Origin: Pseudomonadales bacterium
Lineage (GTDB): Bacteria > Pseudomonadota > Gammaproteobacteria > Pseudomonadales > UBA7239
Direction: 5' to 3'
DNA length: 64,000 bases
Assembly (NCBI GenBank): GCA_028280345.1
Contig: JANQLY010000005.1
Coordinates: 64,179 to 128,178 of the forward strand
Position numbers: made by a program. Of this stretch, positions 1-6,000 are shown piece after piece. Each line of letters starts with the position of its first letter. Position 1 is the first letter of the stretch.

Positions 1-3000
1 TTTCAACAGGCGGTTATGGCAAAACCGGAACGGCAAACAGAACTCAATCAATGGCTAAATGAACTGTTGGGCAAGGGCAGCGCACTTGTGGAAATGGCAC
101 CATTGGCGGAAAGTGCGATTGATGCCGATGAAGTAGCTTTGCGAATCATGAACCTGTTTAATTTATGCACAGGATATTTCTCATCCGAGATAGTTTTAAC
201 TCGCCTGGTGGGTAAGGGTGCCCAGGATCCGGACTTACTTGAAAAACAGAAGAGATTGCTAACTGATATCGCCAGAAGTTGGCTTGGACTATAACTGACA
301 GAAATGGAACAAACCATGACACCGATAGAAACCGTTAATTCACTGTTTAAGTCGATAGAGGCGAACGACCGCAATTTAATACTCGCACACTTTCACGAAG
401 ATGCAGTATTTCACAATATGCCCATGGAAGAGGCAGTGGGTCACGAAGCCATCTGGCAGGCGTTTGCACCGATTCACGATATTTGCACAGGCATTCAGTG
501 GCAGGTACATAATATGACAGCAGACGATAGAGGTTGTGTGTATACCGAGAGAACAGATCGTTACCGGGTTAACGATATCTGGTGTGAATTTGCAGTAATG
601 GGCATTCACGAAATCGATAATGGCAAGGTTAGAAAGTGGCGCGATTACTTTGACTTGCAACAGGTTATGGCGCAGTTAAGCGCGGTATAACAATCAGGCC
701 GTCAGCGAGAAAGTGTTATGAATAAAATTTATGCTATGACCGGAGGTGCAACCGGCATTGGTGCAGCGGTAAAGCAGCAACTCATTGATCGCGGTGACCA
801 GGTCATTGTAATTGATATTCAAGCTTCTGATATTGTCGCGGATTTATCAACTACAGAAGGTCGGGCCAATGCATTGCGTGCACTTGAAGAAAAAGCACCG
901 GATGGTCTTGATGGTTTTATTCCGTGTGCCGGGCTTGGACCACATACCAAACCGTATTCCCTGATAGCCCGGGTTAACTTTTTTGGATCTACAGCAATGA
1001 TAGAAGGCGTGCGACCTTTGCTGGAAAAGAAAAAAGGCGTCATCGTAGTTATTTCGTCAAATTCTGCACCGCTGCCTGGATACAGTGAGGATTTTATTAA
1101 GAAGCTGCTGTCAGGTGATGAAGAGCAGGCCTGTAAATTGATAGATACTTTGGACGGCCAGACTGCCTATGGTGGCTCCAAGCGTGCACTGGCCATCTGG
1201 ATGCGGGAGAAATCAGCGGAGTATATGCGCAACGGGGTAAGAATGAATGCCGTTGCGCCAGGTGTTACCCAAACCGCGATGACAGATGGTGTATTTAATG
1301 ATGAAACGTTTGGCAGTGCAATTAAGGAGTTTAGTGAAATGACACCTTATGGTTCTGTCGCCCAACCGGAAATGATTGCCGACAGTATTTTGTTTTTACT
1401 CGGGCCACAATCTGAGTTTATCTGTGGTTCTGTTCTGTTCGTCGATGGTGGTACTGATGCGATGTTAAGACCCACCGAGTTTTAATTACCCCCCCCCTGA
1501 ACCAACAACCCCCTGACCAAGGAGAATGAAAATGTCTGAGATAGATTTTGGTCCATTACAAGTATTGATTGGAACATGGAAAGGAGACCGTGGTACTGAT
1601 GTGGCTCCTGAGCCAGATGGCAAGGATGAAACGCCATTTTTTGAAACAATTGAGATTGAAGCCGTTGGTGATGTAACCAACGCGAAAAAACAAACGCTGG
1701 TTGTGGTGCGCTATCATCAAGTAGTGAGCAGAAAGTCTAATAACGAAGTCTTTCACGATGAGATTGGCTATTGGTACTGGGATGCTGATAGTGAAACCGT
1801 TGCTCATTCACTGACGATACCTCGCGCAGTTTGTGTATTGGCGGGCGGTACCGTGAAGCAAAATGGTGATGAAGTTGAATTTCAGGTCAGTGCAAAAGAT
1901 GGAGACAGGGATTGGGGAATTGTTCAATCGCCGTTTATGCGCGATAACGCCCGCACCGTAGAATTTCGTCACAATATTAAGGTTTCAGGCGATACCTTGG
2001 CTTATTCAGAAACAACGGTACTGGATATTTATGGCAAGACTTTTGACCATACCGACGAAAATACCTTGCAACGTTCCTAGTGCGTCGTAATCAATAGCCC
2101 TGACAATAAAAACAGGATAGTAAAAAACGGTCAGGGCTATACCAACATAACCAACATAGTAAAGATATAAAATGTCAATAGAGATTAATAGTTTATAGTG
2201 TATGGGTAGTCTAAGTAAAAAAATTGATACATTGTTACCGCAGTCAGCACGTGAAAACACCAGCTTGAATCTGGAAGAACTGATTCGTTCACGCGTATTA
2301 ATCAGTATACTTTTTTGTTCAGTGGCGGCCACCGTCCTCGCACTGATCTTATTTTCCATATTACAGTTTGTGACAGAGAATGATTTTACGAATCCGCTAA
2401 TTATTGCTGGCACCTGCTTTGTGGTTGTTATGCTGATTTATCTGTTTTATATCAAAACAGGCAAACTTGACGCGACGGGCATGTTGTACTCGCTGTGTTT
2501 TTTTATTGCTGTCATTGTGTCAGTGGTACTCACTGGAGGGTATTCATCACCGGTCAAGCAAATACTGGTTTGTAGCCCAGTGCTGGCTTTCCTGATCGGG
2601 GGGCGGCAGGAAGGTTTGTACAATGGAGTGCTGGTTTTTGTTGCCGGCGTTATTCTGATATTGCTTGATGCTACGGGCTTTGAACTGTTACAAATTATGC
2701 CTGTGGAAATCCTGCCCTACCTGTCCGCCTCCATCTGGTTTATCACGGTTCTTATGCTTGTAATTTGTCTCTATGTTTATGATCTGTTACTGGAGGATAA
2801 GCGAGGTATGCGGCCAGACTGATTAAATTAACTCAATAAACGCTTGCCATCTTATAAAACCACTGTATACTTATACAGTAAATCGCACGGAAGAAAAGTC
2901 ACACCAGGCGCGTACATGGACACTCTAACTGCCTGGCCGATTTGATTAACTAATAACCTAATACTGCTTGTGTCCCTGATATCAGGGCAGTGGCTCGTTT

Positions 3001-6000
3001 TGCCTGTTTGCCTAAGTAGCCATAAATTTATGGAAAATGAAATATGGAATATGGAAAAAACACAAAGACATGGAAGCAAATAACAATGATTGTTGCAGAC
3101 TGCTTTAGGCAATTGGACAGGCAGCTTGTGCATGGAACTCACAAGCTGCCTGTTTTTTTATTAAAGTTCTGTAAAGGTGGGCAGCGGGATTGCAGTATGA
3201 TTTGTGACACGGTATCTAATCAACAGATTAAGGAGCATATGATGAAAATGATTCGGGTAATATCGACGGCTATTCGATCCATTGGTTTCGACCCTGAGAC
3301 GCGGTGCTTGAAAATCACCTTCCAGCAAGGTGATACCTATGAATTTTGGGGAGTACCCTCGCGGCTTTACGTCGGCCTGATGTGTGCAAACTCCCACGGC
3401 CAATTTTATAACCGCTATATTCGCAACTGTTTTTCTAATTACTGATAACCTGCCCTCCAGCTAAACCGGGCATGGTGTAAAGCGCAGAATCTTTCTATAA
3501 TACGGGCCAAAACTACCCCAAGGGGTAGTATTTTTTAACAATGATTTTGCGTACTATGACCTCTCCTATTGATACTTCATACTTTTTGGCGTGTTGCACC
3601 CTCTGCACACGCCTTTTTCTTTTTCTGTATCCGATAGTAGCCTTGATTAAAGTCATTGCACAATTCAGGGCTTTGGCGCATGATGCCGATGCTTTTCACA
3701 CCCCGGCAGGTTTCCCATCATGCGAAAACTGATTCTACCGATTTTGCTGCGCTGCGTTGTGTTGGCAGTGGTTCTCCTTGCTGTCAGTGCATGTGAATCG
3801 GTAAGCGATGAAGAAAAGCTTATAAGGTCGATGGCGAATAATTACATTATTCCAATCCACGAAGACTTTGTATCATCTACTGCTGAACTGACTCAGGTAG
3901 CACAACAGTACTGCACAGCGCGTACTGAGGAAAATCTGGAACAGCTACAAAACAGCTGGCGCAAAAGCATACAGGTTTGGCAGGGTGTACAAATGGTGCA
4001 CTTTGGGCCTTTGGTAGAACAAAACCTGGCCTGGCGCATTCAGTTTTATTATGACCGGAAAAATCTTGTTGCCAAAAAAGTTGAAGCAGCACTGAAAAGT
4101 GGAGAGACGATCAATCGAGAATTTGTCAGTCAGTCCAGTGTTCCGATGCAGGGCTTTCCGGCAATTGAATATTTGCTCTTTGACGAAAAAGGAGCGGATC
4201 CATCGCGCTACGATGCTGACCCTTCACGCTGTGTATTACTTGTTTCTATTGCTGAAAATCTCAACAGCATTAGTATGGAGTTGCTTGATAACTGGCAGCA
4301 GAGCTATCTCGGATATTTTCTCAATCCAGGTCCAGAGAATGAACACTATGCCTCGCTCGATGAGGCGATGACTGTCTACATTGGTGCATTGTCGGCAAAG
4401 GTATATGAGCTCACCAAAAAAAAATATCGGCCAATTTTTGGCAGACAATTAAAAACACCTCGCGTTAATCCTTACAAGCTGGAAAGCTGGCGTTCCGGTT
4501 ATACGCTTGGCGTCTGGGAGGCACAGATAGACGCGATGGAGTCAGTCTACCGTGGTGGTAACGGTGGCTATGGTTTGGATAAATATCTTAAGGCCCGGCC
4601 GGAACACCGGGAGCTGCACAAACAACTGGAACAGGATTTTATAAAAATCAGGGAATCCTTTGCCAATTCGCCGGCCCCATTGTTTACCGCGGTCAATGCG
4701 CCGGAGCATAAAGTATTTTTTGAGCAACAGGATGAGCAGCTATGGGCTTTTACTGTCAGCTTGGGTCACGACCTGCCTGAAGCATTGGGTATCAAACTGG
4801 GCTTTAACGCCAACGATGGAGATTAAAAGGTGTTGAGTCGGCGACAGTTGTTGTCTGGTGTGCTTTGCGGTACAGCGGGTTATGCTGTGTTGCCAAAGCT
4901 GTCGATGGCGACATCGCAATATATGCAGCAGTGGTTGTTCAGCGCTTGTGATAATCACGAAGGGCAACATTTCATCTATGGCTGGTGTGCGCAGCAGCAC
5001 AAGCAATGGCAAATTCCGGTTGCTCAACGTTGTCACGGAGCAAGCTGTTTCGGACGATATGTTGTCTTTGCTGCGCGGCGCCCTGGAACAGTGATGTATA
5101 TCGTTGACAGATACAGCGGTGAGCTACTGTATGAATTGGAGGCCAAAGCCGGTACTCATTTTTTCGGGCATAGTGTGTTTTCACCGGATGGTCATTATCT
5201 CTATGTTACAGAGAGCCGCTTTGCTAATACCCTTAAAACGAAAGGTGTGGTCGGTGTCTATGCATCTGATCAGCAATTTAGCAGAGTGGCCGAATTGCCT
5301 GTTCATGGTATTGGTCCCCATGAGTTGCAAATACTACCTGATGGTAAAACGCTGGTAGTGGCGGTCGGAGGCATACTTACACACCCTCAACGTGGGCGGG
5401 AAAAGCTTAATCTGGATAGCATGCAGTCTTCCGTTAATTATATTGATACTGCGACAGGTGAATTAAAGGGACAAGTGTTGGCGCCGGCACAAAAGCTTAG
5501 CCTGCGTCATCTGGCGGTTACTAATACGGGTGATATAGTTGTCGGTGCCCAATCGCAGGATGATGAATTGACAGCGCCGCTACTATTTCGACATTCAATT
5601 AATGAATCGAATGAGCTGCTACCGTTTGAGGCTGACAGCTGGCTTTGGCAACAACACAATAGCTATATTGCCAGTGTTGCTGTGTCAGCAGATGGTTTAA
5701 TTGCATTGGCAACTTCGCCGCGTGGTAATCTTGCCAGTCTCTGGGATATGCGCAGTGGGGAAAATCTTGCGAGCTATACACTGATTGATGTTGCGGGTGT
5801 GGCCTATGATGACTCGCAACAAGCTTTTTTGCTAAGTAATGGTCAGGGCCGTCTTTATCAGTTATCTGGTAAACGCGACCCTAAAAAAGGACAGTATGTG
5901 GCATTACAACCGAAGTCGTGGCGAGCGCCCATTAAGCCACGCTGGGATAATCATTTAACACTGCACAGTCAAAAGGGCTGATGAGATTATGAAGCGCCGC

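Follow-up and report, generated by a model that had tools for sequence, protein, structure and literature searches.

A candidate SOS-regulated small RNA or leader transcript upstream of a KTSC gene in an orphan gammaproteobacterial lineage

To our knowledge, few small RNAs are directly repressed by LexA, and those that stand alone are rare. DinR of Klebsiella pneumoniae is a LexA-controlled, Hfq-dependent small RNA that acts in trans to repress ftsZ; it is processed from the dinI mRNA, and the start of the dinI-DinR primary transcript, 348 nucleotides (nt) long, lies under a LexA box (PMC10907235). Type I toxin-antitoxin RNAs aside, that study found no further LexA-linked small RNA gene among its data (PMC10907235). 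The E. coli loci tisB/istR-1/istR-2, dinQ/agrB and symE/symR give rise to small LexA-repressed transcripts of a few hundred nt, and IstR-2 is itself a LexA-controlled small RNA (PMC1891008, PMC13159721). Here, we analyse a stretch of 64,000 nt from a Pseudomonadales bacterium (assembly GCA_028280345.1, contig JANQLY010000005.1, positions 64,179 to 128,178 of the forward strand), hereafter the window, in which a promoter overlain by a LexA box is followed by about 240 nt without a credible open reading frame and by a very strong terminator, just upstream of a small gene for a KTSC protein. This architecture is far beyond chance. It makes the locus a new orphan candidate for an SOS-regulated small RNA or leader. 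With about even confidence, we read it as one LexA-controlled unit with two 3' ends, the main product of which would be a non-coding regulatory RNA of ~282 nt, the KTSC gene being expressed by read-through. Like DinR, it has a LexA box over the start site, a Rho-independent terminator and a similar size (~282 against 348 nt), and it would provide a non-coding arm of the SOS response. Unlike DinR, it holds no dinI-like or other reading frame, and the two share no sequence similarity. DinR is nevertheless the closest functional analogue.

The unit is made of the following features, in window positions:

2844-2871, plus strand: sigma-70-type promoter, with the -35 hexamer TTGCCA at 2844-2849, a 16-nt spacer and the -10 hexamer TATACT at 2866-2871.
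2861-2880, no strand assigned: LexA (SOS) box cACTGTATAcTTATACAGTA, overlying the -10 hexamer and the predicted start site.
2878-3159, plus strand: predicted primary transcript of ~282 nt with no credible open reading frame, its start at ~2878 being placed from the position of the -10 hexamer.
3117-3159, plus strand: intrinsic terminator T1, with a perfect 14-bp stem, a 9-nt loop and a U-tract.
3239-3445, plus strand: KTSC gene, preceded by the Shine-Dalgarno sequence AAGGAG at 3230-3235, with its ATG at 3239 or 3242 and its stop at 3443-3445, encoding 68 or 67 amino acids (aa).
3512-3535, plus strand: intrinsic terminator T2 after the KTSC gene, with a 7-bp stem, a 4-nt loop and T6.

The initial annotation of this DNA, made from the sequence, reported a 17/20 match to the SOS box at 2861-2880, directly over a sigma70-like promoter, and we found both at these positions. 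The 17 matching positions are those in agreement with TACTGTATATATATACAGTA, and the two 8-bp arms of the box, ACTGTATA and TATACAGT, are perfect. In a scan with a position weight matrix, the box scores 23.8 bits, against 17.6 for the runner-up in the window and 16.7 for the best site in 20 shuffles of the window; the matrix is a rough one, built from E. coli operators. The LexA motif CTGT-N8-ACAG, which is in use among Cellvibrionales-like gammaproteobacteria, occurs four times in the 64 kb, and only the copy at 2861-2880 is near consensus. The promoter (TTGCCA-16-TATACT) agrees with the consensus at 10 of 12 positions and is the only plus-strand site that good in 2200-4500, and the segment directly 5' of the -35 hexamer (2824-2843) is AT-rich. 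As expected of a member of the LexA regulon, the operator is close to the gammaproteobacterial consensus, and since the -10 hexamer and the predicted start both lie within it, its placement would let bound LexA block the promoter.

The other end of the unit is equally well defined. The arms of T1 (3117-3130 and 3140-3153) are 14 nt long and 100% complementary, and they enclose the 9-nt loop CATGGAACT. The T run spans 3153-3159, its first T being the last base of the stem, so that six U lie beyond the stem. The hairpin, with an energy of -26.0 kcal/mol, lies ~240 nt downstream of the LexA box and promoter, and the earlier description of a strong terminator at 3117-3159 thus holds. A scan of the plus and minus strands of the full 64 kb for perfect stems of 7 bp or more, with five or more T behind them, recovered only T1 and T2, T1 being the stronger. 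The sole two terminators of this kind in the window therefore bracket the KTSC gene. A hairpin with a U-tail of this type stabilises small RNAs and binds Hfq. The locus has what a free-standing small RNA gene should have, i.e. its own promoter, no translated reading frame and an intrinsic terminator with a U-tail, all as predicted from sequence.

Could the transcript encode a peptide? The initial annotation had found only short reading frames without Shine-Dalgarno sequences between promoter and terminator, and we agree: on the plus strand there are frames of 9, 9, 17, 23 and 37 codons, plus one of 33 codons that starts 5' of the predicted start, and not one of them is preceded by a usably spaced Shine-Dalgarno sequence. 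Scored for codon usage, with 29 long reading frames of the window as the training set, the candidate frames had log-odds from -13.0 to +3.2 bits, none of them near the range of native genes. No Pfam family was found for any stop-free fragment of 2823-3245 on either strand (E <= 10), a single match at 0.2 being meaningless. The minus strand holds a 96-codon frame that scores -13 bits on codon usage, and there is no promoter-like site on that strand in 2800-3200. These results bear on one of the three options put forward in the initial annotation, in which the transcript would be the mRNA of an SOS-induced micropeptide or type I toxin similar to TisB or DinQ. In its size of ~280 nt and its LexA control, the transcript is indeed like those of tisB and dinQ, and four of the frames (9, 17, 23 and 37 codons) might be taken as candidates. 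But the short peptides of the interval are polar or lack a Shine-Dalgarno sequence at workable spacing, and none forms a hydrophobic helix. The E. coli SOS type I loci resemble our locus in LexA control and transcript size, yet they encode a hydrophobic toxin or SymE together with an overlapping or divergent antisense RNA, and neither is present here. We found neither a hydrophobic toxin frame with a ribosome-binding site nor an antisense or divergent promoter from which an antitoxin RNA could be made, and no Pfam or Rfam match points to such a system. We regard a toxin-like mRNA as very unlikely; the other two options, a small RNA and an attenuated leader, both stand.

The box, the promoter, the two terminators, the lack of a credible reading frame and an excess of one short motif, described below, are features of the DNA itself. 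From these we propose the following sequence of events. In the undamaged cell, LexA would sit on the box over the -10 hexamer and start site and occlude RNA polymerase. Upon DNA damage, LexA would be cleaved and the near-consensus promoter would fire. We base these two steps on the quality and the placement of the operator. Most transcripts would then end at T1, giving the ~282-nt non-coding RNA, and a minority would read through to T2, no other origin being evident for the mRNA of the small KTSC protein; these further steps are suggested by the strength of T1 and by the lack of any other promoter. LexA binding, induction, the start site, the efficiency of the terminators and action in trans are what we infer from the sequence. 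Most likely, the short RNA would be a regulatory RNA in its own right.

The KTSC gene is central to how self-contained this unit may be. In its 68-aa product, residues 9-65 align with positions 2-58 of the 58 of PF13619 (KTSC) at E = 1.5e-19, which places it in the family, and a profile of KTSC relatives matches the structures 7x8c and 4rgi in PDB. The gene has the same orientation as the predicted RNA and follows T1 after a gap of 80 nt. Between T1 and its start (3160-3238) we found no sigma-70-like site matching at least 9 of 12 positions, and by eye the best candidates lack key positions of the -10 hexamer. Since no promoter is detectable in this interval and T2 follows the gene, read-through of T1 is the simplest reading of how KTSC would be expressed. 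This affects the notion of a self-contained SOS-inducible small transcript with which the initial annotation had closed: the architecture of a unit stands, but the term self-contained is probably too strong, because read-through from the LexA promoter is the only evident route to KTSC expression. Overall, the description given there was right and its interpretation is partly supported.

The same arrangement, i.e. a terminator between a promoter and a promoterless downstream gene, is that of an attenuator. One could accordingly read the 282 nt as a purely cis-acting leader that gates SOS-driven KTSC, the short RNA being a by-product. In such a leader, read-through would be set by an antiterminator or by ribosomes translating through T1 from the AUG at 3044 or 3086, and the switch could also be set by a protein binding AUGGA motifs that overlap these AUG codons and weak GGA elements resembling Shine-Dalgarno sequences. 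The candidate antiterminator is the following:

3000-3008, plus strand: possible weak antiterminator strand UUGCCUGUU, with a predicted pairing to 3116-3124, a portion of T1's 5' arm.

In minimum-energy folds of the nascent RNA, ended before the 3' arm of T1, the pairing of 3000-3008 with 3116-3124 forms a 9-bp helix that lengthens the hairpin of 3010-3112 and contributes about -7.8 kcal/mol, the inclusion of 3113-3125 lowering the energy from -53.6 to -61.4 kcal/mol. The repeat TGCCTGTTT occurs at 3001 and 3147, and 2929-2942 is also complementary to 3111-3124 at 12 of 14 positions. Furthermore, the 66 codons ahead of the gene (3041-3238) contain no stop in the frame of KTSC, even across T1, but 4-5 stops in the other two frames. 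This could be a chance event, with an estimated probability of 0.01-0.05, or might point to translation across the terminator. That promoter, RNA and KTSC resemble one acquired module (see below) also fits a leader. The locus is like known terminator-antiterminator leaders, of the sort from which short RNAs are released as well, in its succession of promoter, leader ending in a terminator, promoterless gene and second terminator, and in having a predicted alternative helix that would compete for the 5' arm of T1. It is unlike them in several respects. The antiterminator is weak relative to the -26 kcal/mol of T1, the loop-proximal half of which stays free to nucleate. There is no aptamer, riboswitch or leader known to Rfam, and no convincing leader peptide, since no candidate shows runs of regulatory codons or a Shine-Dalgarno sequence. 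Nor is the RNA body unusually structured.

KTSC relatives speak to the same point, as they have no comparable leader. Among the loci of 21 relatives in other species, none has a LexA box within 2 kb, and they share no common leader or terminator. KTSC is thus not a general SOS gene, a possibility that we rejected on these grounds, and the promoter and RNA are no standard appendage of KTSC genes, since the relatives have neither the box nor a shared leader. Sequence does not separate a trans-acting small RNA from a cis-acting attenuator; on balance, we regard a purely cis-acting leader as possible, if on the unlikely side.

The open frame upstream of KTSC raises another question, namely whether the gene itself is longer. 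The frame running from 3044 to 3445 encodes 133 aa, i.e. the 68-aa KTSC protein with an N-terminal extension of 65 codons that spans the T1 hairpin. If it were genuine, or if a 119-aa version were, the protein would be an N-terminally extended KTSC and the hairpin would lie inside a coding region by chance. The frame is open throughout 3041-3445, one gene caller predicts the 133 aa, in the Logan assembly, and weak GGA-type Shine-Dalgarno elements lie 9 nt before the AUG at 3044 and that at 3086. However, the extension matches no Pfam family and is similar to none of 150 KTSC relatives, and its codon-usage score is negative (-4.3 bits). Stand-alone KTSC homologues start at the very Met that follows AAGGAG, and the sole NCBI copy in the protein collection has 67 aa. 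A perfect 14-bp hairpin followed by a U-tract would also be very unusual within a coding region. Together with the Pfam match of the shorter protein, these observations bear out the earlier view that only the last ~68 codons are real, and they support the conclusion that the extension is spurious; we hold a genuine 133-aa or 119-aa protein to be hardly credible.

If the ~282-nt RNA is a regulator, its sequence should offer some clue to its mode of action. The motifs of interest are these:

2887, plus strand: ACGGA motif.
2916, 3030, 3044, 3051, 3070 and 3132 (starts; span 2916-3136), plus strand: six AUGGA motifs.
3029-3056, plus strand: imperfect heptamer tandem repeat TATGGAA, four units, containing three of the AUGGA motifs.

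AUGGA occurs six times where 0.33-0.49 copies are expected, the rate over the whole window being 0.33 per 283 nt. No other 283-nt window on either strand of the 64 kb has more than three copies, and none of 5000 dinucleotide shuffles of the region (0/5000) reached six. Including ACGGA, the 283 nt contain seven A(N)GGA sites, and eight GGA in all, or one GGA per 35 nt; four of the seven A(N)GGA sites fit CANGGA, and the site at 3132 lies in the loop of T1. A(N)GGA is the core of the binding sites of CsrA/RsmA. Given its loose structure, its hairpin with a U-tail and its cluster of A(N)GGA sites, the short RNA could either titrate a GGA-binding protein such as CsrA/RsmA or act by base-pairing.

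Canonical Csr/Rsm sponges carry many GGA, at a density of about one per 15-20 nt, and most of these lie in loops or unpaired regions. Like CsrB, CsrC and RsmX/Y/Z, the predicted RNA is non-coding, ends in an intrinsic terminator and repeats A(N)GGA, with four CANGGA and one site in a hairpin loop. Unlike them, it has half their motif density or less, three of its motifs belong to one 7-nt tandem repeat, and a LexA box takes the place of a GacA/UvrY box. Even when 3 mismatches were allowed, we found no GacA/UvrY box TGTAAG-N6-CTTACA at distances of up to 14 kb from the locus, and a GacA-controlled Rsm RNA was rejected on this ground. Nor does Rfam give a match, at E <= 10 for the locus or at gathering thresholds for the whole window, to the CsrB, CsrC or RsmX/Y/Z models or to any other family. 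All Csr/Rsm sponge RNAs known to us are under the control of GacA/UvrY and not of LexA. The 64-kb window does not include a CsrA gene. The RNA is thus no member of this family and could at most work like one of its sponges. One might speculate that it is an SOS-induced sponge, the seven A(N)GGA sites of which titrate CsrA/RsmA or another GGA-binding protein on DNA damage, but we find this doubtful. In a variant of the idea, KTSC, which would be co-transcribed and is a putative nucleic-acid-binding domain, would bind the motifs and thereby feed back on read-through at T1.

Comparison with relatives is hampered by the position of the organism, which by UvrD identity is a Cellvibrionales-like gammaproteobacterium of an orphan lineage. 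Several proteins of the window match only themselves among 5.8 billion clusters. The nearest UvrD, from a metagenome contig, is 79% identical, and those of the named genera Exilibacterium, Pseudomaricurvus, Halioglobus and Marinimicrobium are 69-73% identical. KTSC matches only itself in the protein database, and the KTSC and imelysin proteins together match only themselves, in one NCBI contig and one Logan assembly (L023, SRR20820735), 100% identical to the window; exact look-ups of both proteins gave this assembly, of the same strain, as the only other copy. The nearest relative of the imelysin is 45% identical, and upstream synteny is lost. There was no useful match when 2823-3239 was compared with phages and plasmids by blastn, or when genome contigs were scanned with the adjacent imelysin protein. 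A scan of viral contigs with the KTSC alignment gave no homologue, and self-blast of the region within the window gave no paralogue. A metagenome scan for a LexA box followed after ~150 nt by two ATGGAA gave 11 matches, close to the chance expectation; most fell in coding sequence, and no match was homologous.

With so little to compare, one may ask whether the locus is an evolutionary accident or a decayed remnant, i.e. the promoter and terminator of a lost SOS gene, for example one of the size of dinI, still transcribed but functionless. The distance between promoter and terminator would suit a gene of ~80 codons, no conservation was found, the body of the RNA is not unusually structured and the organism lacks sequenced close relatives for comparison. 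But no residual protein similarity is left in any frame, and a decayed dinI-like gene or other pseudogene was rejected for want of a Pfam signal in any stop-free fragment. Moreover, decay that had gone far enough to erase a reading frame would not be expected to leave box, promoter and terminator intact and near-optimal, as all three are here, and the excess of AUGGA would be left unexplained. We therefore think a functionless remnant rather unlikely.

The origin of the unit may also be considered in light of its composition. The codon usage of KTSC scores 4.0 bits, against 26.5 +/- 9.9 for native 65-codon pieces. This atypical usage and the bracketing of KTSC by the only two canonical terminators of the window suggest that promoter, RNA and KTSC (~0.7 kb) were acquired as a unit, possibly horizontally. 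A horizontally inserted cassette with boundary repeats was also considered and rejected: no such repeats were found, a 21-nt direct repeat at 2813/2931 being at chance level.

Several of these results weigh against a LexA-controlled regulatory RNA with read-through into KTSC, and must be set beside those that favour it. No homologue of the RNA, and so no conservation, was found in the databases searched. The box is a predicted operator, scored against those of E. coli, and neither lexA nor recA lies within the 64-kb window. Given the atypical codon usage of KTSC, the module looks foreign and could be poorly integrated into the physiology of its host. With the choice of motif left free, some 5-mer reaches at least six copies in ~0.7% of Markov simulations and in 0.6% of real windows; furthermore, half of the copies (3/6) come from the one imperfect 7-nt tandem repeat. 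The density of GGA is under that of canonical Csr/Rsm sponges, and only about half of the motifs are predicted to be unpaired. Finally, the predicted structure of the RNA body (2878-3112) is no more stable than those of shuffled sequences (z = -0.76); with T1 in the fold, the z-score is -2.4.

Elsewhere in the window, the DNA helicase II gene uvrD (12514-14685, by NCBIfam) has no recognisable LexA box upstream in the matrix scan of 12514-14850. The uvrD gene of E. coli has such a box upstream, and the lineage studied here may have a small SOS regulon or a different one. A second candidate LexA site, CACTGTATGTGCGTACAGGT at 22660-22679, scores 15.1 bits, which is inside the range of the shuffles. 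This palindrome lies in a coding region, covering nt 17-36 from the 5' end of a minus-strand reading frame (184 aa, uncharacterised), and is probably a chance occurrence.

Downstream of the unit, an imelysin-DUF1513-multicopper oxidase cluster occupies 3720-7377 of the window, against 3056-9850 in L001. It lacks two genes that stand ahead of it in the nearest relative, a first imelysin and a DHOR/cytochrome c gene, and their place is taken by the LexA-RNA-KTSC module and a 206-aa membrane protein with a weak MASE6-like match. The window holds no tRNA. On the minus strand, two large genes for Ser/Thr protein kinases with PknB-like domains are near neighbours, at 26472-28178 and 29572-31776, which is unusual for a gammaproteobacterium.

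The practical value of the locus is limited, because the host is unstudied and without sequenced close relatives and every functional step is a matter of inference. Yet, if the reading of a regulatory RNA is true, a free-standing LexA-controlled RNA outside enterobacteria would mean that the non-coding arm of the SOS response arose more than once. With one box, one promoter and one terminator, the locus would also give a clean handle on the targets of such RNAs. Should the GGA motifs prove functional, the DNA-damage response would be wired into the global post-transcriptional network of Csr/Rsm. And for stand-alone KTSC proteins, the locus offers a first regulatory clue.

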